Assembly: GCA_016235455.1 (NCBI GenBank)
Contig: JACRKZ010000101.1
Span: forward strand, 1 to 34,464
Direction: 5' to 3'
Origin: Armatimonadota bacterium
GTDB taxonomy: Bacteria > Armatimonadota > UBA10988
DNA length: 34,464 nucleotides
Shown here: in pieces, positions 5-32,063 of the stretch
Position numbering within the stretch: the stretch's first letter is position 1
Layout of the letters: every line of letters begins with the position of its first letter
Position numbers and translations under genes: made by a program
The notes under the pieces: model-generated
Told to the model about the DNA's origin: nothing
Databases searched by the model: none
The model's input: only the letters and a program-made list of their open reading frames with translations

Positions 5-1204
<1,200 letters not shown>

Positions 1205-4845: not shown

Positions 4846-5736
4846 GTGGGTCAGAAAGTCCATCCCATCGGCTTTCGGCTGGGCTACATCCGGGATCACG
4901 ACGCCAAGTGGTTCGCGGATCGCAGCTACCGCGAGTTCTGCGTCGAAGACATGAAGATTCGCGCCTACCTGGACCGCTACAACAAGAAGCGGCCGCCGAC
5001 GGTGGCGCACGACGACGAAGAGCGCAAGGTGGAGCAGGGCCTGGCCCAGGCCAGCATCTCGCGCGTCGAGATCGGTCGCAGTGTCAACTCCGTGCACCTG
5101 ACCATCCACTCGGCCAAGCCGGGCGTGATCATCGGTCGCGCGGGCCGCGGCATCGAGGTGCTGCGAGTCCTGTTGACGCGCATGACCCGCCGCGTGGTGA
5201 CCATCGACGTGATCGAAGAGCGCAATCCGGACCTGGATGCGCGGCTGGTCGCGGAGAAGGTGGCCAGCCAGTTGAGCCGGCGCATCAGCTTCCGGCGCGC
5301 GGTGCGGCAGGCCGTGCAGTCGACCATGCGGTCGAATGCGCAAGGCGTGAAGATCAGTGTCTCCGGTCGACTGGGCGGCGCCGAAATGGCCCGTCGCCAC
5401 GTCCACAAGGAAGGCAAGATCCCCCTGCAGACGTTGCGCGCCGACATTGACTACGGCACCTGCGAGGCCATGACCGGTTACGGCAACATCGGCGTCAAGG
5501 TGTGGGTCTATCGCGGCGAGAAGCTGCCCAGCAACGACGAGCCGGAGGCCGCTCCGATCCTTGAGATCACTCCCGAGCGCCCCGACTCCCCCGCTGGCGA
5601 CGATGCTTCCAAGGGCCGACGCCGGGGACGGCGCCGCGGCCGCAGCGATGATGCGCCGGTGACCGAAGGTGTTGGTCCCGTGGCTGACGCGGCTCCCGTC
5701 CAGGCGCCGCCCCCGCCCGCGGGCGATCAGGCGTAA
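4846..5736 (+). CDS. rpsC: 30S ribosomal protein S3 (uS3), with an internal insertion and a long C-terminal tail
   Basis: [45 protein letters not shown]; GTG start behind GAGGAG. Confidence 0.98.
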
Positions 5737-5748
5737 GGAGAGCCGGCC

Positions 5749-6174
5749 ATGTTGATGCCACGACGTGAGAAGTACAGGCGGCTGCACCGCGGCCGCATGC
5801 GCGGCGAGACCAAGGGCGGCGCCGAGGTGTCGTTCGGCGACATCGGCCTGATGGCGCTGGAGCCTTGTTGGATCAAGGCCAGCCAGATCGAGTCGGCTCG
5901 TATCGCCATGACCCGCAAGATCCGCCGCGGCGGTAAGGTGTGGATTCGCATCTTCCCGCACAAGTCGGTCACCAAGAAGCCGGCCGAGACCCGCATGGGT
6001 TCGGGTAAGGGCATTCCGGAGTTCTGGGTGGCCGTGGTCAAGCCGGGCCGGATCATGTTCGAGATGGGCGGCGCCGAGCTCGACCTCATGCGCGAAGCGC
6101 TGGGGATCGCGGCTCACAAGCTGCCGGTGCCGTGCAAGATCGTGTATCGGGAGGGCCTTGGCGATGCCGAATGA
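5749..6174 (+). CDS. rplP: 50S ribosomal protein L16 (uL16)
   Basis: [11 protein letters not shown]...WIRIFP...[12 protein letters not shown]. Confidence 0.99.
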
Positions 6175-6385
6175 GACCAGCCGGGTAAAGACGGAGATCC
6201 GCGAGGCCAACGAAGAAGAGCTGACGCGGATGCTCTCGACCTACAAGCAGGAGCACTTTCAGCTGCGCATGCAGTCGGCGACGGCTGCGCTGGATAACCC
6301 CAAGCGCATCTGGTTCGTGCGCAAGGTGATCGCGCGCATCGAGACGGCCTTGGCCCAGCGCCGGTCGCAAGGAGTGGCTCAATGA
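6164..6385 (+). CDS. rpmC: 50S ribosomal protein L29 (uL29)
   Basis: EHFQLRMQ...LDNPKRI...RKVIARIET; position between rplP and rpsQ. Confidence 0.93.
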
Positions 6386-6633
6386 GTGAGTCGACAGGAC
6401 GCCGCCGCCAGTTGGAAGGCGTCGTGGTCAGCGCCAAGAGCGCCAAGACCGTGGTGGTCAGGGTGGAGCGCCGCACGCGGCATCCGCTGTATCAGCGGGT
6501 GGTGCGGACCTCGACCAAGTACCACGCCCATGACGAAAGCAACGGCTTGACGGCCGGGCAGCGCGTGCGGATCGAAGAGAGCCGCCCGCTGAGCCGCCTC
6601 AAGCGTTGGAACGTGGTGGCGGTTCTGGACTGA
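6382..6633 (+). CDS. rpsQ: 30S ribosomal protein S17 (uS17)
   Basis: GVVVS.K..KTVVV.VE...HPLY...KYHAHDE...[11 protein letters not shown]. Confidence 0.98.
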
Positions 6634-6657
6634 GCGAGGGGCAACCACTGTAGGCGG

Positions 6658-6695
6658 AGCGGCGTTCGCGAACACGGTTCGTGAGCGCGACCGCT
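6658..6695 (+). promoter_or_regulatory. Stem-loop in the rpsQ-EF-G2 spacer
   Basis: cgttcgcgaac-acg-gttcgtgagcg (11 bp with two G.U pairs) closed by agcgg/ccgct; no U-tract. Confidence 0.45.
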
Positions 6696-6715
6696 GGGCG
6701 ACTGGAGAAGCGCTG

Positions 6716-8788
6716 ATGGCGCAGACGGCCGACATTCGCAATATCGCCCTGATCGGGCACCGTGGCGCGGGCAAGACCTCGCTGACCGAGGCCTTGTTGC
6801 ACGCCGCCGGCGCGACCAACCGCATGGGTTCGGTCCAAGGCGGCAACGCCGTTACCGACTTCGATGACGAGGAACGCGCTCGTCAGCTCTCGATCAGCGG
6901 CGCCGTGGCCAGCTTCGAGTACAAGGGCAAGCGCATCAACCTGCTGGATACCCCTGGGTATGCGGACTTCCTGGGCGAGACCTACGGCGCGTTGCGCGTC
7001 GCGGACTGTGCCGTGCTGGTGGTCCACGCCGAGTCGGGCGTCGAGGTGGAGACCGAGAAGACTTTTGCCTATGCGCAGGAGTTCGGTCTGCCGGTGATCG
7101 CGGTCATCAACCACGCCGACGCGGAACGCGCCGATGTGGAGCGGGTCATCGACCAGCTGAGCAGCAAGCTCGGCGCTCGCGTGGCCATCGTCGGCCTGCC
7201 GTGGGGCAAGGGCGCCAGCCTCGAAGGCGTGGTGGACCTGGCCCAGAACGCGGCGTTCCCCGGCGGACAGACCAAGACCGCGCAAGCCGCGCCGATTCCG
7301 GCCGACCTGGCCGGTCAGGCGGAGGAGCTGCGCGGCACCATGGTCGAGTTCGCCGCCGAGAACGACGAAGGCCTGATGGAGAAGTTCTTCGAGGGCGAGT
7401 CGCTGTCCGCGGACGAACTGCTGGCCGGTCTGAAGATGGGCGTGGCTACGGGCCTGGTGCCGGTGACGGTGACCAGCGCCACGCGCAACATCGGCACGCT
7501 GCCGTTGCTCGACCTGCTGCTGGGCCTGGCGCCTTCGCCGGCCGACCGACCGGCGGTCAAGGGCCTGCGGCCGCACAGCCAGGACGAAGTGGAGCGCGCT
7601 CCGGACGCCAAGGCGCCGTTCAGCGCCTACTGCTTCAAGTGCGTGCTGGGTGAAGGTCGCCGCATCAGCCTCATCCGCGTGCTGTCGGGCTCCGCCTCGG
7701 CCGGCATGCAGGTGCTCAACAGCACCAAGGGTGAGAAGGAGCGGCTGGGCACCTTCGGCGTCATGCGCGGTGGTGAGCTCAAGGATGTGACCAGCCTGGT
7801 GGCGGGTGACATCGTCGGCGTGGTCAAGATCGACGCCAGCGCGGGCGACACCTTGTGCGACGATAGCGCGCCGGTGGTGTACCCGTCGACCAAGTACCCG
7901 ACGCCCCTGATGAGCCTGGCCATTCAGGCCAAGAGTCGGGGCGACGACGAGAAGGTCGGCGCGGGCATGAGCGCGCTGCGCGACGAGGACCCCAGCATGC
8001 GCTTCGCGCGCAATCCGGAGACGGAGCAGCAGGTCCTGAGCGGCATGGGCGACATGCACTTGCAGGTCATCCTGAGCAAGCTCAAGAACCGCTTCAAGGT
8101 CGAAGTGGAGACCAGCAAGCCCAAGATCGCCTACAAGGAGACGGTGCGCAGCCGCGCCGAGTCCCAGGGTCGCTACAAGAAGCAGACCGGTGGCTCGGGC
8201 CAGTTCGGCGACGTGCACATGCGCCTCGAACCGCTACCCCGCGGCTCGGGCGTGGAGTTCTCCGACGAGATCTTTGGCGGCTCGGTGCCCAAGCAGTACA
8301 TTCCTTCGGCCGAGAAGGGCTCGCGCGCTCGACTCGCGGAAGGACTGATTGCCGGGTTCCCGGTGGTCGATACGAAGATCACGTTGTACGATGGCAGCTA
8401 CCACAACGTGGACAGCTCGGACATCGCTTTCCAGCTGGCCGCGCGCATCGCCATGGAGGCGTGTGCGCAGAAGGCCGGCGTGGTGTTGCTGGAGCCGATC
8501 ATGGACGTCTATGTGAGCGTCCCTGACGACTACGTGGGCGACATCATGGGCGACCTGCCGCGGCGGCGCGGCACGGTCATGGGTTCCACCGGCGAAGGCA
8601 ACCTGCAGACCATCCAGGCGCAGGTGCCGGCGGCCGAATTGGCGACCTACGCGACCGATCTGCGCTCCATGACGCAGGGCCGAGGTTCGTTCCGGATTGA
8701 GTTCAACCGGTACGAGGAAGTGCCCGGCGACTTGCAGCAGAAGATCGTCGCGGAGCGAGCAGCGGAAATGGCGGAAGCCCGCAAGTAA
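6716..8788 (+). CDS. fusA2: Elongation factor G paralogue (EF-G2/EF-G II type translational GTPase)
   Basis: 690 aa with five-domain EF-G layout. G1 GHRGAGKTS, G2 ERARQLSI, G3 DTPGY, G4 NHAD; domain III GMGDMHL; domain IV KKQTGGSGQFGD and DGSYHNVDSS; domain V LLEPIM...YATDLRSMTQGRG. SD GGAG upstream. Confidence 0.95.
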   Translation: MAQTADIRNIALIGHRGAGKTSLTEALLHAAGATNRMGSVQGGNAVTDFDDEERARQLSISGAVASFEYKGKRINLLDTPGYADFLGETYGALRVADCAVLVVHAESGVEVETEKTFAYAQEFGLPVIAVINHADAERADVERVIDQLSSKLGARVAIVGLPWGKGASLEGVVDLAQNAAFPGGQTKTAQAAPIPADLAGQAEELRGTMVEFAAENDEGLMEKFFEGESLSADELLAGLKMGVATGLVPVTVTSATRNIGTLPLLDLLLGLAPSPADRPAVKGLRPHSQDEVERAPDAKAPFSAYCFKCVLGEGRRISLIRVLSGSASAGMQVLNSTKGEKERLGTFGVMRGGELKDVTSLVAGDIVGVVKIDASAGDTLCDDSAPVVYPSTKYPTPLMSLAIQAKSRGDDEKVGAGMSALRDEDPSMRFARNPETEQQVLSGMGDMHLQVILSKLKNRFKVEVETSKPKIAYKETVRSRAESQGRYKKQTGGSGQFGDVHMRLEPLPRGSGVEFSDEIFGGSVPKQYIPSAEKGSRARLAEGLIAGFPVVDTKITLYDGSYHNVDSSDIAFQLAARIAMEACAQKAGVVLLEPIMDVYVSVPDDYVGDIMGDLPRRRGTVMGSTGEGNLQTIQAQVPAAELATYATDLRSMTQGRGSFRIEFNRYEEVPGDLQQKIVAERAAEMAEARK

Positions 8789-8817
8789 CGGGACGAGACT
8801 GAAGAGAGGCAACGGCC

Positions 8818-9189
8818 ATGATTCAACAAGAAACGCGACTGCGGGTAGCCGACAACACGGGTGCGCTTGAAATTCTGTGCATCCAGGTCATGGGCGGTAC
8901 GCGACGACGGTACGCGCGGGTCGGCGACATCATTCGGGCGACGGTCAAGTCGACCCGGCCTGGTTCGTCGGTACCCAAGGGTAGCGTCATCAAAGCCGTC
9001 GTGGTGCGCACGCGCAAAGAGTATCAGCGGCCGGACGGGACAACCATCCGGTTCGACGATAACGCGGCGGTGATCGTCGGTGACGACGGCAGCGAGCCCC
9101 AGGGCACGCGCATCTTTGGACCGGTGGCGCGCGAATTGCGCGACAAGCGGTTCATGCGCATTGTCTCCCTGGCGCCGGAGGTGTTGTGA
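8818..9189 (+). CDS. rplN: 50S ribosomal protein L14 (uL14)
   Basis: [16 protein letters not shown]...IRFDDNAAV...[13 protein letters not shown]...SLAPEVL. Confidence 0.99.
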
Positions 9190-9572
9190 TGAAGCGGGAG
9201 CGACCGGATACCCGGCACAAAGAGCGGCCTAAGGTCCGGCTGCATATTGGTGATGAGGTCGAGGTGATTACCGGCAAGGACGCGTCCAAACGCGGCCGGG
9301 TCACCGAGGTCTTGCGCGACGAGCAGCGCGTGCGGGTCAGTGGCGTCGCCATGATGACCAAGCACCAACGCGCGCGAGGTCGGTCGCGTGCCATGCAGTC
9401 CCAGACTGGGCGCATTCAGATGCCGGGCACGATCCATGTGAGCAACGTACAGTTGGTCTGCGGCGTGTGCGGCAAGCGGACTCGGCCCCGGTTCGAGGTA
9501 AGTGACGCTGGCAAGCAGCGGCTTTGCCGGCTGTGTGGCGCTGATATCAGCCGCCAGCACGGGGAGGAGTAG
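9189..9572 (+). CDS. rplX: 50S ribosomal protein L24 (uL24), Zn-ribbon (CxxC...CxxC) form
   Basis: GDEVEVITGKD KOW motif, IHVSNVQLVCGVC...CRLC; alternative GTG start at 9186. Confidence 0.97.
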   Translation: MKRERPDTRHKERPKVRLHIGDEVEVITGKDASKRGRVTEVLRDEQRVRVSGVAMMTKHQRARGRSRAMQSQTGRIQMPGTIHVSNVQLVCGVCGKRTRPRFEVSDAGKQRLCRLCGADISRQHGEE

Positions 9573-9575
9573 AGC

Positions 9576-10127
9576 ATGGCCACCACACCGCGGCTGCGCG
9601 ACCGGTACTCGACCGAGATCGTCGCGCAGATGACCGAGGAGTTCGCCTATAAGAACGTCATGCAGGTGCCTAAGCTGGTCAAGGTTGTGGCCAGCATGGG
9701 TGTGGGCGAGGGCCGCGAGGACGCGGCTCACGTGACCACCGCTGCGGACGACCTGATGGCCATCTGCGGGCAGCGCCCCAAAATCACGCGCGCCCGCAAG
9801 TCGATCAGCAACTTCAAGCTGCGCGAGGGTATGACCGTCGGTTGCTTCGTGACGTTGCGCGGCGACCGCATGTACGAGTTCATGGACCGCTTGGTGGCCT
9901 TGGCGCTGCCCCGCATCCGGGACTTCCGCGGTCTGTCGCCCAACGGCTTCGATGGCCGGGGCAACTACTCGCTCGGTCTCAAGGAGCAGACTGTGTTCCC
10001 CGAGATCGATCCGGACAAGGTGCAGCGGATGCAGGGCCTGAACATCACGATTGTGACGACGGCCAAGACCGATGCCGAGGCGCTGGCGTTGCTCAAGCGC
10101 TTTGGTCTGCCGCTGGCTGAGAAATAG
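9576..10127 (+). CDS. rplE: 50S ribosomal protein L5 (uL5)
   Basis: [33 protein letters not shown]. Confidence 0.99.
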
Positions 10128-15469: not shown

Positions 15470-15844
15470 GTGGCCCGCGTAGCAGGTGTTGATCTTCCCA
15501 ACCATAAGCGGTTGGAGGTGGCCCTGACCTACATCTACGGCATCGGCCGAAGCCGAGCGCTGGAGATCTGTGAGGTCTGTGGTCTGGAAGCGATGAGCCG
15601 CATCGGCGATCTGACCGATGAGGAACTGAACCGCGTGCGTGATTGCATCGACCGGGACTACCGCGTCGAGGGCGACCTGCGCCGTGAGGTGCAGGCGAAC
15701 ATCCGTCGGTTGATCGAAATTGGTGCGTACCGTGGGCGGCGCCACCGCATGGGCTTGCCCGTGCGTGGTCAGCGCACGAAGACCAATGCCCGCACCCGTA
15801 AGGGCAAGGCGAAGACCGTCGGCAAGAAGAAGGGCAAGCGGTAA
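15470..15844 (+). CDS. rpsM: 30S ribosomal protein S13 (uS13)
   Basis: [43 protein letters not shown]. Confidence 0.99.
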
Positions 15845-15862
15845 GGTAAGGGAGTAGAGTCG

Positions 15863-16249
15863 ATGCGTCAGAGCGAGACCCGACGGCGGCGCGAGCGGCG
15901 CCATGTGCCCCGTGGCGTGGTGCACATTCAGTCGTCCTTCAATAACACCATTGTGACCATCAGCGACCAGGCCGGCCAGCCGGTGTCCTGGGCCAGCTGC
16001 GGCACGGTCGGGTTCAAGGGCACCAAGAAGGGTTCTCCCTTCCCCGCCCAGCTCGCCGCCGAAGCTGCTGCCCGTAAGGCGCAGGAATATGGCATGAAGC
16101 AGGTCGAGGTCTACGTCAAGGGACCCGGCAGTGGCCGTGAAACGGCCATCCGCGCCATCGAGAATGCGGGCCTCGAAGTCCTCCTGATCAAGGACGTGAC
16201 GCCGATTCCGCACAACGGGTGCCGGCCGCCCAAGCGCCGTCGCGTCTAG
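15863..16249 (+). CDS. rpsK: 30S ribosomal protein S11 (uS11)
   Basis: [43 protein letters not shown]. Confidence 0.99.
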
Positions 16250-16322
16250 ACGCGGGCGTGAGCGTTACGCTGGGGCGTGGGCTGACCACGCCCATGGCTA
16301 GCTGGACGACGCGGGAGAGAAC

Positions 16323-17303
16323 ATGATCAAGGTTGCAGGCAAAGAGCCGATCGTCGATCCGGTGCGGGTCACCCCGGACTACGGTAAGTTCGTCGTTGAG
16401 CCGTTGCCCCATGGCTTCGGCACGACGATGGGCAATGCCCTCAGGCGGGTGCTGCTCAATTCGGTGCCGGGTGTGGCTATCACCGCGGCGCGCATTGAGG
16501 GCGTGGCGCACGAGTTCACCACGCTGCCCCACGTGCTGGAGGACATGACGGAACTGATCCTCAACCTCAAAGAGGTGGCGTTCCAGGTCAACCAGGCATC
16601 GCTGCTGGAGTCGGACACGCCGCAGCGCTTCCCCGGCCGCATCGAGGCCGAGGGCAAGGGTGAGGTGACCGGCGCCGACATCGTGGTCATGGGTGGCGAC
16701 ATCGAGGTGGTCAATCCGGATCTGCACTTGGCGCATCTGACCCATGATGACGCGCGCCTGGTGATTGACCTGACCATCGAGACGGGCGTGGGCTACACGG
16801 CGGCTGACAAGCATGACGTGTCGCAGATGGGCCTCGGGGTCATTCCCGTCGACAGCCTGTTCACGCCGGTGACGCGGGTCAACCATGTCGTGGAAAGCAC
16901 GCGCGTTGGCCATCAGACCGACCTGGACCGGCTGATCCTGGAGATCTGGACCAACGCCGCGATGGGCCCGGTGAACGCGTTGTCGCAGGCGGCACGCATC
17001 CTGGATGAGTACTTCCGGCTGTTCTTCGACTTCCGTGCCGAGCCGTCGGACGAGTCCCCGGCGCGGGCTGCCCGCTTGGACGGGCCGCGCGCGGAAGGCT
17101 TGGAAGCGAAGATCGAGGAGTTGGACTTCTCGGTTCGCACTTACAACTGCTTGAAGAAAGAGCACATCGACACCATCGGCGAGTTGGTGCAGTTGTCCGA
17201 GAAGTCGTTGCTGGAGATTCGTAATCTCGGCACGAAGTCGCTCAATGAGATCAAGGACAAGCTGGCCGAGCGCGGCATGGGCCTCGCCGAAGACGAAGGG
17301 TAA
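16323..17303 (+). CDS. rpoA: DNA-directed RNA polymerase subunit alpha
   Basis: YGKFVVEPL..GFGTTMGNALRRVLL, HEF, IEELDFSVRTYNCLK, IRNLGTKSLNEI. Confidence 0.99.
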   Translation: MIKVAGKEPIVDPVRVTPDYGKFVVEPLPHGFGTTMGNALRRVLLNSVPGVAITAARIEGVAHEFTTLPHVLEDMTELILNLKEVAFQVNQASLLESDTPQRFPGRIEAEGKGEVTGADIVVMGGDIEVVNPDLHLAHLTHDDARLVIDLTIETGVGYTAADKHDVSQMGLGVIPVDSLFTPVTRVNHVVESTRVGHQTDLDRLILEIWTNAAMGPVNALSQAARILDEYFRLFFDFRAEPSDESPARAARLDGPRAEGLEAKIEELDFSVRTYNCLKKEHIDTIGELVQLSEKSLLEIRNLGTKSLNEIKDKLAERGMGLAEDEG

Positions 17304-17309
17304 GCGACG

Positions 17310-17732
17310 ATGCGACATCGCAAAGCCAATGCACATTTGAACCGGCCCACCGACCAGCGCCTGGCCATGCTGCGCGAGCTGGCCAGTGGCGTCATTTACA
17401 ACGGCAAGATTGAGACCACGGTGGTGCGCTGCAAGGCCACCCGCCCGTACCTTGAGAAGCTGGTGACCAAGGCCGTTCGCGGCCTGCGCTTTGACGAAGC
17501 GGCCGCGGCCGCCACGAACCCCGAGGATGCGGCTCGGCTGCGCGCTCAGTCGGTGCATCTGCGCCGCATTGTGCGCGCCAAGCTGCAGAGCCCGGAGTTG
17601 GTCAAGCACCTGTTCGACCAGGTGGCGCCCCACTTCAAGACTCGGCCGGGCGGCTACACGCGCATCGTGCGCACGGGCTTCCGACGTGGCGACGGCGCCG
17701 AGACGGCGCAGTTGTCCTGGGTCGAGAGCTGA
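17310..17732 (+). CDS. rplQ: 50S ribosomal protein L17 (bL17)
   Basis: MRHRK...KIETT...RPGGYTRI...RRGDGA. Confidence 0.98.
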   Translation: MRHRKANAHLNRPTDQRLAMLRELASGVIYNGKIETTVVRCKATRPYLEKLVTKAVRGLRFDEAAAAATNPEDAARLRAQSVHLRRIVRAKLQSPELVKHLFDQVAPHFKTRPGGYTRIVRTGFRRGDGAETAQLSWVES

Positions 17733-27351: not shown

Positions 27352-29712
27352 CTAGAATCCCTCATGCTCCGTGCGTTCGATGATCTCATCCTGCAACGCC
27401 CGCGACAGATCGCAGAAGTAGTCGCTGTAGCCCGCCACCCGCACAATCAGGTCGCGGTGCTTTTCGGGCTGGGCCTGCGCCTTGCGCAGCGTGTCGGCGC
27501 GGACCACGTTGAACTGCACATGATGGCCGTTGAGCCGGAAGTAGGTGCGTACCAGCCGGCCCATGTTCTCGATGCCCTCGTCGCCGGCCAGCAGGCTGGG
27601 TGTGAACTTGCAATTGAGCAGCGTGCCGCCCGTGCGCAGGTGGTCCATCTTGGCGGCGCTGAGCATCATCGCCGTCGGTCCGCGGCGGTCGGCGCCCTGC
27701 ACCGGGCTGATGCCTTCGGACACCGGCACGCCGGCACGGCGGCCGTCGGGCAGGGCGCCGATGACCTGGCCGAAGTAGACATGGCAGGTGGTTGGCAGCA
27801 TGTCGATGTGGTACTGCCCTCCGCGCGTGTTGGGGCGGCCGTCGACCGTGGCGAAGTAGGCCTCGAAACAGGCCCGCATGATATCGTCCGCCGCGTCGTC
27901 GTCGGTGCCGTACTTCGGCGCGTCGTTGAGCAACCTCCGGCGTAGCGGTTCCTGCCCAGCGAAGTCGTCAGCCAGAGCGGCGAGCAGTTCGTCCATGCTC
28001 AGCGTCGCGCGCTCATAGACGTGCGAGCGGATGGCGGCGAAGGCGTCAGTCAGCGTGCCGATACCCACGCCCTGGATGTAGCTGGTGTTGTAGCGCGCGC
28101 CGCCGGCATTGTAGTCGCGGCCCTTGGCAATGCAGTCATCGATGAGGATGCTCAGGAACGGCGCCGGCGCGTACTTGGCGTACATCCGCTCGATGAGCTG
28201 ATTGCCGCGGACCTTGATGTCGACGAAATGCCGGACCTGCGTCTGCCAGGCGGCGAACAGCTGGTCGTAGGTGCCGAACTCGCGCGCCTCTCCGGTCCGC
28301 GGGCCGAGCTGCCGGCCGGTGCGCGGGTCGCGGCCGTTGTTCAGCGTCAGTTCCAGCACCTTGGGCAGGTTGAAGTAGCCGGTGAGGACATACGCCTCCT
28401 TGCCGAACGCGCCGGCCTCGACGCAGCCGCTGGTGCCCGCGGCACGCGCGTCGGCGATGGACTTGCCCTGGCGCAGCAGTTCCTCGATCACCGCGTCGCA
28501 GTTGAACACCGAGGGGAAGCCGTAGCCCTGGCGGATGACGCGGCAGGCGGCGTGGAGGAAGTGGTCCGGGTTCTGTCGCGAGAGCTGGATGTTGTTGCTC
28601 GGCTGGAGCAGGTGCATCTCATCGATGACCTCCAGCAGCAGGTATGAGACGTCGTTGACCGCATCGCTGCCGTCGGCGCGTACGCCACCGAGGTTGATGT
28701 TGCAGAAGTCGGTGTAGGTGCCGCTCTCGGCCGCCGTCACGCCCACTTTGGGCGGTGCGGGATGGTTGTTGAACTTGACCCAGAAGCACTCGAGCAACTC
28801 GGTGGCGCGCTCGCGGTCCAGGCTACCATCGGCCAGGCCGGCGGCGTAGAAGGGCGCCAGGTGCTGGTCGAGATGGCCGGGGTTGAAGCTGTCCCAGCCG
28901 TTCAACTCGGTGATCACCGCCAGGTGGCACCACCAGTACATCTGCAGCGCTTCCCAGAAGTTGCGCGGCGGCTCGGCTGGCACCCGCTCGCAGACCTCGG
29001 CGATACGCAGCAGCTCAGCGGCGCGCGCGGCGTCGGCGCAGGTGGTGGCCTTCACTCGGGCCAGGTCGGCGTGGCGCTGGCTGAATACGATGACCGCCTC
29101 GGCGGCGATGTGCATGGCCTGGAGCTGCTCATCGCGCGAGTGCGCGTCGGGGTCGGTCTCCCAGTCCAGCGCGGCGCGCGCCGCGGCGATGTCGGCCTGG
29201 AAGCCCCTCATGCCCTTGGCATACATCTTGCCATCGGCGACGGTGTGGCCCGGCGCGCGCTGCTCCATGAACTCGGTGAAGACGCCAGCCTCATAGGCGG
29301 CGTGCCACTCGGGCGGCAGCTGGCCCATCAGGCGGTCGCGCATGGAGCGGCCCTGCCAGTAGGGGATGACCGTCTGCTCGTAGGTCTCGACCACCTCGTC
29401 GTCGACGCGATACCAGGTCAGCGGCCGGCTGTCGAGCACGCGCAGATCTTCCGCTGAGTGACAGGTGAGCTCGGGGAAGGTCGGTGTGAGCTTGGGCGCC
29501 GGGCCGCGCTCGCCGACGATCAGTTCGTCATCGCCCAGGTAGATGGTCTTGGTGGCACAGAGATGCCAGAAGGCCTTGGCCCGCTGCACCGGCACCGAGT
29601 GGCGGCCGTTCTCGGCCAGGTAGAACTCGGTCATCAGCCGCGCGCGCTCGGCCGAGATGCGCGGCTCGGTATCCAGGCTCAGACGGCGAAGACGTTCGAC
29701 ACGCTCGGTCAC
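27352..29712 (-). CDS. hypD: Glycyl radical enzyme, trans-4-hydroxy-L-proline dehydratase (HypD)-like
   Basis: Gly-radical loop RVAGYS and Cys loop SGCVEAG; HypD-type segments TEFMEQRAPGH, WDSFNPG, ESGTYTDF, AYVLTGY, MLPTTCH; 786 aa; GTG start with AGGAG. Confidence 0.88.
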   Translation of the reverse strand: MTERVERLRRLSLDTEPRISAERARLMTEFYLAENGRHSVPVQRAKAFWHLCATKTIYLGDDELIVGERGPAPKLTPTFPELTCHSAEDLRVLDSRPLTWYRVDDEVVETYEQTVIPYWQGRSMRDRLMGQLPPEWHAAYEAGVFTEFMEQRAPGHTVADGKMYAKGMRGFQADIAAARAALDWETDPDAHSRDEQLQAMHIAAEAVIVFSQRHADLARVKATTCADAARAAELLRIAEVCERVPAEPPRNFWEALQMYWWCHLAVITELNGWDSFNPGHLDQHLAPFYAAGLADGSLDRERATELLECFWVKFNNHPAPPKVGVTAAESGTYTDFCNINLGGVRADGSDAVNDVSYLLLEVIDEMHLLQPSNNIQLSRQNPDHFLHAACRVIRQGYGFPSVFNCDAVIEELLRQGKSIADARAAGTSGCVEAGAFGKEAYVLTGYFNLPKVLELTLNNGRDPRTGRQLGPRTGEAREFGTYDQLFAAWQTQVRHFVDIKVRGNQLIERMYAKYAPAPFLSILIDDCIAKGRDYNAGGARYNTSYIQGVGIGTLTDAFAAIRSHVYERATLSMDELLAALADDFAGQEPLRRRLLNDAPKYGTDDDAADDIMRACFEAYFATVDGRPNTRGGQYHIDMLPTTCHVYFGQVIGALPDGRRAGVPVSEGISPVQGADRRGPTAMMLSAAKMDHLRTGGTLLNCKFTPSLLAGDEGIENMGRLVRTYFRLNGHHVQFNVVRADTLRKAQAQPEKHRDLIVRVAGYSDYFCDLSRALQDEIIERTEHEGF

Positions 29713-29724
29713 GCGACAAGCTCC

Positions 29725-29762
29725 TGACCCGATATCGTGACCCGATCGGCCCGATTTGGCAA
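29725..29762 (-). promoter_or_regulatory. Candidate hypD promoter overlapped by direct repeats
   Basis: Minus strand TTGCCA-17 nt-CACGAT; ATCGGGTCA x2 (29725-29733, 29738-29746) plus a partial ATCGGG (29750-29755). Confidence 0.45.
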
Positions 29763-29878
29763 GCGCGGGCGCGGGCGCGCTGCGCGTGGGGCGTCAGGCG
29801 TGAGGCGCGGGGGGGAGCAACACCGCGCCGATGGGCGGAACCAACCACGTGTCCAGCACCCCGACGCCCGACGCCTGC

Positions 29879-29907
29879 TTGCGGCCAGCGCCGCCAGCGG
29901 GGATAAT
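29879..29907 (+). promoter_or_regulatory. Candidate sigma70 promoter for ppk1
   Basis: TTGCGG-17 nt-GATAAT. Confidence 0.5.
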
Positions 29908-29927
29908 GGGAGGCCAAGAAGGGCACC

Positions 29928-32063
29928 ATGGACCTCAAGGACGCACGGCTGTACATCAACCGCGAGCAGAGCTGGCTGGAGTTCAACCATCGCGTGCTGG
30001 AAGAGGCCAGCGATCCGCACAATCCGCTGCTCGAGCAGCTCAAGTTCCTGGCCATCGTCTCGAGCAATCTGGACGAGTTCTTCATGGTCCGCGTGGCCGG
30101 CGTCATGAGCCAGGTCCATGCCGGCGTGACGCGCGCCAAAGGCACCGACCCTTCACCGCCGGCGTTGCTCGCCGCGATTCGCCGTCGCACGCAGCGCATG
30201 GTGCGCGAGCAGTACCAGAGGCTACGCGAGGGAGTGTTGCCCGGGCTGCGCGCCGAGGGCTTGCGGCTGCTGGCGCTGACCGAGCTGACGGCCGAGCAGC
30301 GCGAGGCGGCCGACCGCTTCTTCCGCGAGCGCGCCTTCCCCGTGCTGTCGCCACTGGCCATCGATCCGGCCCATCCGGTGCCGCACCTGCACAACATGTC
30401 GCTCAACCTCATCGTGGCGCTCGAGGGACCCGCCAACGGCGAGGCCTGCGGGCCGCTGGCCTTCGTCGAGGTGCCGGCGGTGCTGCCGCGCTTCGTGCCG
30501 CTGCCCAGCGCCGACGGGCAGCGCGACTTCATCGCCCTGGGTAGCCTGATCGCGGCGCATCTGGGCGAGCTGTTCCTGGGCTATGGCGTGCGCAGCGCCA
30601 CGCTGTTCAGAGTCACGCGCGACGCCGACCTGAACATCGATGAGGACGACGCCGAGGACCTGCTGCGCGATATCGAGCAGGCGCTGCGCGAGCGCGACCG
30701 CGGCCGGCCGGTGCGCCTCGAGATTGAGGCCGGGTGCGACACGGAGTCGCTGGCCTACCTGCAGCGCACGCTGGAGCTGGGTGATGACGACACGTACGTC
30801 ATCGACGGCCCGCTGAACCTCAAGGACTTCTTCGCGCTGGCCGGCACACCGGGCTTCGATCGGCTGCGCTACCGCTCATTCCTGCCGCGCATCACGCTCG
30901 ATGCCGACGGGCAGGACGACCTGTTCGCCGCCATCCGGCGCCGGCCGATCTTCATGCACCACCCGTTCGACAGCTTCGCCACGGTGGTCGAGTTCCTGCG
31001 GCAGGCCGCCGACGACCCGGACGTGCTGGCCATCAAGATGACGCTGTACCGCACCAGCGGCGACTCGCCCGTGGTGCAGGCGCTGGCCCGCGCCGCTGAG
31101 AACGGCAAGCAGGTGGCCGCACTGGTCGAACTCAAGGCGCGCTTCGACGAAGGGTCCAACATCCGCTGGGCACGCGCGCTGGAGCAGGCGGGCGTGCATG
31201 TAGTCTATGGACTGGTCGGCCTCAAGACCCACTGCAAAGTGGTCAGCGTGGTGCGGCGCGAGCGCGAAGGCCTGCGCTTCTACGTTCATCTGGGCACCGG
31301 CAACTACCATCCGCAGACCGCGCGGCTGTATACCGATTGCGGGCTGCTGACCTGCGACCAGGCCATCGGCGAGGACGTCAGCCAGCTCTTCAACATCCTC
31401 ACCGGCTACAGCCAGTTCCCCACCTGGCGCAAGCTGGCTGTGGCGCCCGAGGACCTCAAGAAGCGCGTCATCGAGCTGATCCGTGCCGAGGCCGAGTTGG
31501 CGCGCTCCGGGGTGGGCGGGCAGGTCATCGCCAAGTGCAACGCCATCATCGAGCCCGACGTCATCGAGGCGTTGTACGAGGCGTCCATGGCCGGCGTGCA
31601 GATTGACCTCATCAGCCGCGGCATCTGCGGGCTGGTGCCTGGCGTCAAAGGCGTGAGCGAGACCATCCGCGTGCGCAGCATCGTCGGTCGCTTCCTCGAG
31701 CACAGCCGCGTGTTCTGCTTCGGCAACGGCGGCGACCCCAAGCTCTACATGGCCAGCGCCGACTGGATGGAGCGCAACCTCAACCGGCGCATCGAAACCA
31801 TGTTCCCCATCGAGGACCCGGCACTGCGCGACCACATCATCCGCGACATCCTCATGGTCTATCTGGCCGACAACGCCAAGGCCCGGCTGCTGCAGTCCGA
31901 CGGCTCGTGGGTGCGACCCGCCCGCGCGGTGGACGCCCCGCTGCTCAATGCCCAGGAGGAGTTCCTGCGCCTGTCGGCCCAGAGCGACCCCAGCCGCACG
32001 GTCCGCAAATTCGGCGCCAGTTCGCGCTTCTTGGCTCGGGGCGCGGCCAGAACGCCCAAATGA
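29928..32063 (+). CDS. ppk1: Polyphosphate kinase 1
   Basis: YINREQSWLEFNHRVL, SSNLDEFFMVRVAG, AIKMTLYRTS, ELKARFDE, LKTHCK (phospho-His), GTGNY, SIVGRFLEHSR, SADWMERN. Confidence 0.98.
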   Translation: MDLKDARLYINREQSWLEFNHRVLEEASDPHNPLLEQLKFLAIVSSNLDEFFMVRVAGVMSQVHAGVTRAKGTDPSPPALLAAIRRRTQRMVREQYQRLREGVLPGLRAEGLRLLALTELTAEQREAADRFFRERAFPVLSPLAIDPAHPVPHLHNMSLNLIVALEGPANGEACGPLAFVEVPAVLPRFVPLPSADGQRDFIALGSLIAAHLGELFLGYGVRSATLFRVTRDADLNIDEDDAEDLLRDIEQALRERDRGRPVRLEIEAGCDTESLAYLQRTLELGDDDTYVIDGPLNLKDFFALAGTPGFDRLRYRSFLPRITLDADGQDDLFAAIRRRPIFMHHPFDSFATVVEFLRQAADDPDVLAIKMTLYRTSGDSPVVQALARAAENGKQVAALVELKARFDEGSNIRWARALEQAGVHVVYGLVGLKTHCKVVSVVRREREGLRFYVHLGTGNYHPQTARLYTDCGLLTCDQAIGEDVSQLFNILTGYSQFPTWRKLAVAPEDLKKRVIELIRAEAELARSGVGGQVIAKCNAIIEPDVIEALYEASMAGVQIDLISRGICGLVPGVKGVSETIRVRSIVGRFLEHSRVFCFGNGGDPKLYMASADWMERNLNRRIETMFPIEDPALRDHIIRDILMVYLADNAKARLLQSDGSWVRPARAVDAPLLNAQEEFLRLSAQSDPSRTVRKFGASSRFLARGAARTPK

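Follow-up and report, generated by a model that had tools for sequence, protein, structure and literature searches.

An EFG II-type elongation factor G paralogue in the S10-spc ribosomal-protein gene cluster of Armatimonadota

In this study, we analysed a stretch of 34,464 nucleotides from an Armatimonadota bacterium (assembly GCA_016235455.1, contig JACRKZ010000101.1; hereafter the window), in which a gene for a paralogue of elongation factor G (EF-G) lies between the ribosomal-protein genes rpsQ and rplN. Our reading is that this gene is probably a vertically inherited EFG II-type paralogue belonging to the S10-spc cluster, co-expressed with the ribosomal proteins and encoding an alternative EF-G with a poor capacity to hydrolyse GTP. 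The protein family is already known; what is new is its conserved operon context and the regulation which that context implies. That the gene shares a single transcript with its neighbours, its expression level, the loss of GTPase activity and the physiological role are what we infer.

A preliminary description of this DNA had reported an intact EF-G paralogue of 690 aa, co-oriented with rpsQ and rplN, separated from them by only 82 and 29 nt and preceded by a Shine-Dalgarno sequence of its own. All of this is borne out. Indeed, the open reading frame counts 690 codons on the + strand with no internal stop, orientation and gaps can be read directly from the sequence, a GGAG motif lies 8 nt upstream of the ATG, and the five EF-G domains were found with Pfam (GTP_EFTU at residues 6-273, D2 at 301-382, III at 395-467, IV at 469-587 and C at 590-676). 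Only the starting coordinate has to be shifted: the locus was rightly recognised as that of a paralogue, but position 6634, given as its start, is where the spacer begins, and the gene itself starts at 6716 (Table 1).

Judged by its motifs and by its place in a tree of EF-G sequences, the paralogue is an EFG II-type elongation factor G, which agrees with the EF-G2-type assignment first proposed for it. Its top NCBIfam model is NF009381 (834.6 bits), and it remains below the cutoff of the canonical EF-G model (TIGR00484, 640.3 bits for a cutoff of 659.4), with AHIDAGKT, RGITI and DTPGH all altered. In the accessible text of Margus 2011 (PMC3150367), the G2 motif of EFG II lacks RGITI and has a Ser, rarely a Thr or Gly, at the fourth position, and the RxxSI pattern is assigned to the EFG II subgroups of Clostridia and Chloroflexi; the window's protein has RQLSI at residues 56-60. 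Table 1 of the same paper gives six Type I positions for EFG II, numbered as in T. thermophilus EF-G-1 (19 Gly, 28 Leu, 64 Ser, 316 Thr, 360 Gly and 379 Lys/Arg), which we mapped by hand from a HMMER alignment to T. thermophilus EF-G. Five of the six match (Gly14, Leu23, Ser59, Gly352 and Lys371), while Cys309 replaces the usual Thr. The two lysines of EFG II in loop I of domain IV are also present (RYKKQTGGSGQFGD, compared with RFVRQTGG in the organism's own fusA product), and the gene lies beyond the str operon, beside an EFG I gene. With the EFG II subfamily as described in PMC3150367 the protein further shares the Gly at the start of G1, the Leu at the end of the P-loop, DxPG and an evolution quicker than that of fusA. 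It differs by the NHAD that takes the place of NKxD in the window's family, NKxD being a conserved and not a diagnostic EFG II motif (PMC3150367), and by its genomic context: in what we could consult of that study a conserved context is given only for EFG I, in the str operon, whereas here it is S10-spc. When PDB sequences are ranked against the paralogue, T. thermophilus EF-G (578 bits) comes before EF-G-2 (1WDT, 437 bits); since the nearest PDB match is thus canonical EF-G, the EFG II assignment rests on motifs and tree and not on the best hit.

Models of more specific groups leave the protein outside. It scores 603.9 bits against the 890 required for NF009377 (EF-G-like protein EF-G2), on which three other Armatimonadota paralogues reach 605-685 bits, and 569.6 bits against the 1000 required for the Bacteroides EF-G2 model NF058620. 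Two further identities were considered and rejected. The first is a tetracycline ribosomal protection protein (NF012153, 307.3 bits for a cutoff of 775). The second is spdEFG1, whose hallmark, in the descriptions available, is a three-residue 'KDG' insertion in switch I; this insertion is absent here, residues 7-109 aligning gap-free to T. thermophilus EF-G.

The G domain of the paralogue has lost the catalytic His, replaced by Tyr82, as well as RGITI and, in the window's family, the lysine of NKxD. The first two of these losses are general: across 75 Armatimonadota EFG II copies, none of which has an internal stop, the His position is occupied by Tyr (68), Phe (5) or Gly (2) and RGITI is never found, whereas the catalytic His and RGITI are retained in 35/35 full-length canonical copies. 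The Lys-to-His change in G4 is found in 6/6 copies of the window's family (NHAD, NHLD, THVD and GHLD) and in 0/29 other Armatimonadota copies of a 35-copy alignment, most of which have K or R; it may shift nucleotide affinity or specificity. Retained, in contrast to these lost motifs, are the P-loop, DxPG, the tip loops of domain IV and all five domains. With these nucleotide- and ribosome-binding features kept, the protein is expected to occupy the EF-G site of the ribosome. Since it lacks the residues needed to place the hydrolytic water and to touch the sarcin-ricin loop, it would be ribosome-bound with poor or no GTP hydrolysis there. Alongside the product of canonical fusA, it could serve as an alternative translocase, slow and low-energy, or else as a ribosome-bound factor. 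A GTP-driven housekeeping role in translocation or recycling, as put forward in the preliminary description, which overlooked the loss of the catalytic His and of RGITI, is less likely in view of this loss.

Bacteroides EF-G2 is said, in the title of a 2023 article by Han et al., to be a paralog lacking GTPase activity. The EF-G2 of B. thetaiotaomicron (fusA2, BT2167) resembles the window's protein in being an additional EF-G that shares about 31-38% identity with its canonical counterpart and has a non-canonical G domain. The two differ in that the window's protein, being below the NF058620 cutoff, stands outside that group, and in that fusA2 has its own BT4338-activated promoter (PMC6989115) whereas the Armatimonadota gene lies among ribosomal-protein genes. 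When carbon is limiting, the Bacteroides gene is induced 238-fold and fusA mRNA declines (Townsend 2020, PMC6989115). In the portion of a preprint available to us (10.64898/2026.05.25.727771), M. smegmatis EF-G2 carries the same His-to-Tyr change, non-conserved switch I residues and an altered G4, and is without ribosome-dependent GTPase activity. It differs from the window's protein by a degenerate P-loop, where GHRGAGKT is intact in the window, and is described there as stress-specific and dispensable (10.64898/2026.05.25.727771).

The arrangement is not confined to the window's genome. A neighbourhood survey, suggested in the preliminary description, was run on a first set of 41 Armatimonadota genomes from 22 families, for which all EF-G-type matches at E <= 1e-100 were taken bar two partial ones, and on a second set of 40 further paralogue loci, one to three per family, taken from the top of a 201-genome search list and hence biased towards high-scoring paralogues. 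The paralogue lies at rpsQ-rplN in 34 of the 81 genomes (15 families) and at rplE-rpsN in another 34 (19 families). It is found away from ribosomal-protein genes in seven genomes (4 families), a second EF-G is missing at threshold in five, and the position could not be settled in one (G034). The rpsQ-paralogue-rplN order therefore recurs in 33 genomes other than ours, single-contig ones included. The closest named relative, from an uncultured Fimbriimonadaceae bacterium, is 64% identical and has the same gene order. Cluster-resident paralogues invariably share the strand of the genes around them, and the two positions never occur within one family. Otherwise, the locus shares the usual bacterial str-S10-spc-alpha order (rpsL-rpsG-fusA-tuf-rpsJ...rpsQ / rplN-rplX-rplE-rpsN-rpsH-rplF...secY-adk...rpsM-rpsK-rpoA-rplQ), from which it differs by a 2.1-kb translation-factor gene at rpsQ-rplN, placed at rplE-rpsN in other families. 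In the 201-genome search, with at most 5 candidates scored per genome, a hand count gave two matches at E <= 1e-90 in 153 genomes, one in 44 and none in 4.

The copies away from ribosomal-protein genes are L022, L024 and L027 (family f3), L145 and L148 (f5), L035 (f11) and L198 (f28). Those of f3 have a G4 that reads NKMRR and a His-ending GGRGQYGH loop as in canonical EF-G, and fall near the canonical clade in a quick tree.

Placement in this cluster is an Armatimonadota trait among the loci sampled. Among the 79 best non-Armatimonadota loci of a species-genome collection (Bacillota, Acidobacteriota, Actinomycetota, Chloroflexota and others), five are the fusA of the str operon (fusA-tuf), and none of the remaining 74 has a ribosomal-protein gene within 4 kb. 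Likewise, 81 Chloroflexota genomes were sampled, and their 30 best loci comprise 13 str-operon fusA and 17 others (one from an unpublished genome), and 0/17 of these others have ribosomal-protein neighbours within 1.5 kb. These loci agree with the earlier statement that EF-G2 genes are normally separate: the EFG II loci of other phyla lie away from ribosomal-protein genes. In the full-text literature searched, subscription literature being outside its scope, and in the accessible part of the F. ginsengisoli genome paper, we found no description of an EF-G gene within the S10-spc cluster. To this extent the arrangement can still be called undescribed, as first suggested; it is not specific to one genome, but conserved in Armatimonadota with a second variant at rplE-rpsN.

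The paralogue is most likely carried by the same mRNA as its neighbours, because it lies on the same strand, with short spacers and no detectable terminator. As noted in the preliminary description, no terminator is found on either side: a consensus scan of positions 5700-9700 returned no + strand terminator-like site, its sole match being on the minus strand, and no promoter-like site either, the promoter search covering sigma-70 consensus sites only. Furthermore, among public runs covering positions 5800-9600, both junctions of the paralogue are bridged by contigs of two RNA libraries from two studies. The contigs of metatranscriptome X7 span positions 5971-8082 and 8053-9600, those of X12 span 5800-6934 and 8358-9600, and both come from a relative that is about 94% identical. 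They confirm the gene order independently. Depth in the RNA runs is a single figure per contig and was not used for ranking expression. Strand, spacers, the lack of a terminator-like site and the bridging contigs would fit one S10-spc transcription unit, with the caveat that DNA carry-over may contribute to the libraries, and co-transcription with the ribosomal-protein genes, already proposed in the preliminary description, is plausible on these grounds. Through a shared mRNA, synthesis of the paralogue would be tied to ribosome production and its role could be growth-coupled.

The spacers found in relatives argue for operon membership. In 4/5 relatives of the window's family they measure about 19-38 nt on both sides, and at several rplE-rpsN loci the gap to rpsN is 1-13 nt (all of these lengths are approximate, being based on high-scoring segment pairs); gaps of 1-13 nt suggest translational coupling. 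In other genera, the rpsQ-paralogue spacer is much shorter than the 82 nt of the window.

In E. coli, rpsQ-rplN is the boundary between the S10 and spc operons. On that account the site is a permissive one and not the operon interior in which the gene was first placed. It also leaves room for a different explanation, which we regard as rather unlikely: the paralogue would sit in the cluster but be self-regulated, by an internal promoter or by the spacer hairpin, as a Bacteroides-like stress backup inserted neutrally at a permissive boundary. The 82-nt spacer does contain a stable 12-bp hairpin, and in the RNA-library contigs of the ~94% identical relative three of four substitutions in the stem retain pairing, the fourth disrupting the terminal pair. 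Known EF-G2s are stress factors, as in Bacteroides (fusA2, PMC6989115) and, according to the available preprint text, mycobacteria (10.64898/2026.05.25.727771), and the gene is outside the cluster in 7/81 genomes. On the other hand, spacers of about 19-38 nt, as in 4/5 family relatives, have no room for a promoter and a leader. The rplE-rpsN site is inside the spc block and not at a boundary, often with the 1-13 nt gaps to rpsN, and placement is held in 34 + 34 genomes from 34 families. Moreover, no terminator-like site was found and RNA-library contigs cross both junctions. The predicted fold of the rpsQ-paralogue spacer region (-41.1 kcal/mol, z -1.16) is not significant, and the hairpin is a candidate for which we claim no functional role. 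At gathering thresholds, no Rfam family matches anywhere in the window, hence no known ribosomal-protein leader or other RNA.

The source genome (6.5 Mb in 185 contigs, about 67% G+C), of which the window is contig C55, also contains a canonical EF-G. A whole-genome search revealed a second full-length EF-G, 38% identical to the paralogue, on contig C24, whose end holds rpsL, rpsG, this canonical fusA and the first codons of tuf. About 141 bases at this end are the same as the start of C55 (the region 1-145 of the window), as judged by eye from the contig ends. C24 and C55 therefore abut, and the joined locus is rpsL-rpsG-fusA-tuf-rpsJ...rpsQ-[paralogue]-rplN. This settles a check proposed at the outset, namely whether a canonical fusA lies upstream of tuf: it does, on a contig overlapping the start of the window. 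The product of this fusA has AHIDAGKT, RGITI and DTPGHVDF and scores 1023.7 bits with TIGR00484, and canonical fusA is intact in every str operon that we read.

The assembly break falls within tuf, and the contigs of many relatives likewise begin or stop at tuf, which fits a second, collapsed tuf copy or a fork in the assembly graph. In some other genomes fusA is directly followed by rpsJ, without tuf (L136 in G023, L152 in G014, L154 in G029, and L184 in the Chloroflexota genome G250), so that tuf is missing from the str-S10 junction of some Armatimonadota families and of one genome of the Chloroflexota.

Misassembly, which had been raised as a possible objection, is unlikely, since, within the same study, another sample yielded a DNA contig spanning positions 8398-9335 with one difference from the window, RNA-library contigs of the relative cover both junctions, and the same order is present in 33 other genomes. 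More broadly, the idea that the arrangement is an artefact of a metagenome-assembled genome, or that the gene is a duplicate turning into a pseudogene, could appeal to the 185 contigs of the assembly, to the contig break in tuf with which the window begins and to the degenerate G-domain motifs. We consider it extremely improbable: some of the 33 genomes with the same order are single contigs, the junctions are crossed by independent contigs of DNA and of RNA libraries, and the 690-aa frame is open and under constraint. Indeed, the dN/dS of the paralogue, measured against a same-genus genome, is 0.24, for 0.10-0.26 in the five flanking ribosomal-protein genes, and identity of the protein within the window's family is 64-78%. 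Where the paralogue and fusA are compared within the family, identities are 64-68% and 73-75%, respectively; the paralogue evolves faster than fusA, yet clearly under constraint.

The intact canonical fusA also bears on the proposal that the paralogue is a dedicated factor for ribosome recycling or subunit maturation, sharing labour with the fusA product in the manner of spirochaete spdEFG2 or mitochondrial EF-G2. Its seat among ribosomal-protein genes would suit such a function, as would the conservation of domains IV and V and of the tip loops, and a division of labour between two factors is known, from the sources available, in Borrelia and in mitochondria. We nonetheless hold this to be very unlikely. 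In the preprint as available to us, mitochondrial EF-G2 retains both its G motifs and the catalytic His, and depends on GTPase activity (10.64898/2026.05.25.727771), whereas the paralogue has lost these motifs, and mycobacterial EF-G2, with the same His-to-Tyr change, is reported as non-recycling (10.64898/2026.05.25.727771). In addition, switch I is free of the spdEFG1 'KDG' insert, the motifs and 5/6 of the Type I positions are those of EFG II and not of the spd groups, and no str operon that we read has a damaged fusA.

The phylogeny was computed for 79 EF-G sequences by a quick search under LG+G4, the 150 starting rows having been thinned at identity thresholds of 0.62 (outgroups), 0.72 (canonical copies) and 0.97 (paralogues), with L155 (truncated) and L038 (a duplicate of L011) omitted. 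Canonical copies are split from all paralogues by a 100* branch. Within the canonical part, two phylum groups largely coincide with the two positions of the paralogue. The EFG II backbone is not resolved, and the same holds in the 2011 study as far as its available text goes (PMC3150367). Both a single ancient insertion with a later 1.3-kb shift past rplN-rplX-rplE and a pair of insertions are compatible with the data.

Several points weigh against a vertically inherited, cluster-bound and hydrolysis-poor EF-G. In the free tree, the Armatimonadota paralogues are scattered and do not form one clade. In approximately unbiased tests, which took in the set of all 35 copies and the rpsQ-rplN set, monophyly is merely not rejected, for all 35 copies (p 0.165) as for the 14 rpsQ-rplN copies (p 0.262). 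The seven genomes with a paralogue elsewhere and the five without any indicate that residence in the cluster is not obligatory. As to expression, the RNA-library contigs can contain DNA, cannot prove a single transcript and stem from a relative, and the promoter scan, limited as it was to the sigma-70 consensus, leaves room for an internal promoter in rpsQ or in the 82-nt spacer. The codon adaptation index, tried as a proxy for expression, was dropped as dominated by G+C at third codon positions: percentiles are 84 for the paralogue and 52 for fusA, with the median of the ribosomal-protein reference below the genome background, and it gives the paralogue no useful mark of high expression. Among the pieces listed, no DNA or RNA from the window's own strain spans the rpsQ-paralogue junction; in DNA runs X3 and X4 this is a coverage gap and not evidence against the junction. 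Finally, T. thermophilus EF-G-2, an EFG II protein, has intrinsic and ribosome-dependent GTPase activity and performs translocation, according to the parts of the sources consulted (PMC3150367; 10.64898/2026.05.25.727771). The GTPase-loss inference is therefore not safe, and loss of the His alone is no proof.

A bolder reading, to which we lend little credence, is that the His-less EFG II of most Armatimonadota is a constitutive core factor, made in proportion to ribosomes, hard-wired into the ribosomal-protein operons and not a stress backup. It could be a default low-energy translocase working without GTP hydrolysis, which would suit slow-growing oligotrophs, or a checkpoint factor occupying new ribosomes. 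If so, the two insertion sites would reflect an ancient, phylum-level rewiring of EF-G2 regulation.

Independently of that reading, EFG II/EF-G2 proteins are widespread, and their role is understood in few organisms, where they are reportedly dispensable or stress-induced with regulation of their own. A paralogue kept within ribosomal-protein operons, at two family-consistent positions, points instead to expression coupled to ribosome synthesis. As cultured Armatimonadota exist, they offer a testable system for a His-less EF-G in normal growth and for the use of two EF-Gs. For annotation, model scores suggest that pipelines probably name both genes 'elongation factor G'. In phylogenomics, the S10-spc cluster, a syntenic marker block, here carries a phylum-specific 2-kb insert.

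Table 1. Features of the window at and around the EF-G paralogue, with the motifs of its G domain.
Feature	Position	Strand	Evidence
tuf (EF-Tu), first gene of the window	5..1204	+	TIGR00485, 718.7 bits
rpsQ (uS17), last gene of the S10 block	6382..6633	+	NF004123, 107.6 bits (cutoff 74)
rpsQ-paralogue spacer, 82 nt; 12-bp hairpin at 6662-6688 without U-tract; GGAG at 6704-6707	6634..6715	+	sequence
EFG II-type EF-G paralogue, 690 aa plus stop	6716..8788	+	open frame, Pfam, NCBIfam
G1/P-loop GHRGAGKT (residues 14-21; AHIDAGKT in canonical fusA)	6755..6778	+	Gly14 is the EFG II state (Ala in EFG I)
G2/switch I RQLSI (residues 56-60), replacing RGITI	6881..6895	+	EFG II pattern RxxSI
Tyr82 codon in DTPGYADF; catalytic His in EF-G (DTPGHVDF)	6959..6961	+	alignment to T. 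thermophilus EF-G
G4 NHAD (residues 132-135), replacing NKxD	7109..7120	+	motif alignment
Paralogue-rplN spacer, 29 nt; AGAGAGG ends 8 nt 5' of the rplN start	8789..8817	+	sequence
rplN (uL14), first gene of the spc block	8818..9189	+	TIGR01067, 170.3 bits

By gene calls and profile matches, the + strand of the window carries tuf first, then the S10, spc and alpha ribosomal-protein blocks; rplN is followed by rplX, rplE, rpsN, rpsH, rplF and further genes. The alpha block (15470-17732) is rpsM-rpsK-rpoA-rplQ, with a gap of only 52 nt between rpsK and rpoA, and rpsD therefore lies outside the cluster. Further downstream, a pyruvate formate-lyase-type glycyl-radical enzyme is encoded on the minus strand at 27352-29793 (PFL-like, 748 bits, plus Gly_radical), adjoining a gene for polyphosphate kinase 1 at 29907-32063 on the + strand; the enzyme is a hint that this groundwater organism may have anaerobic capacity.

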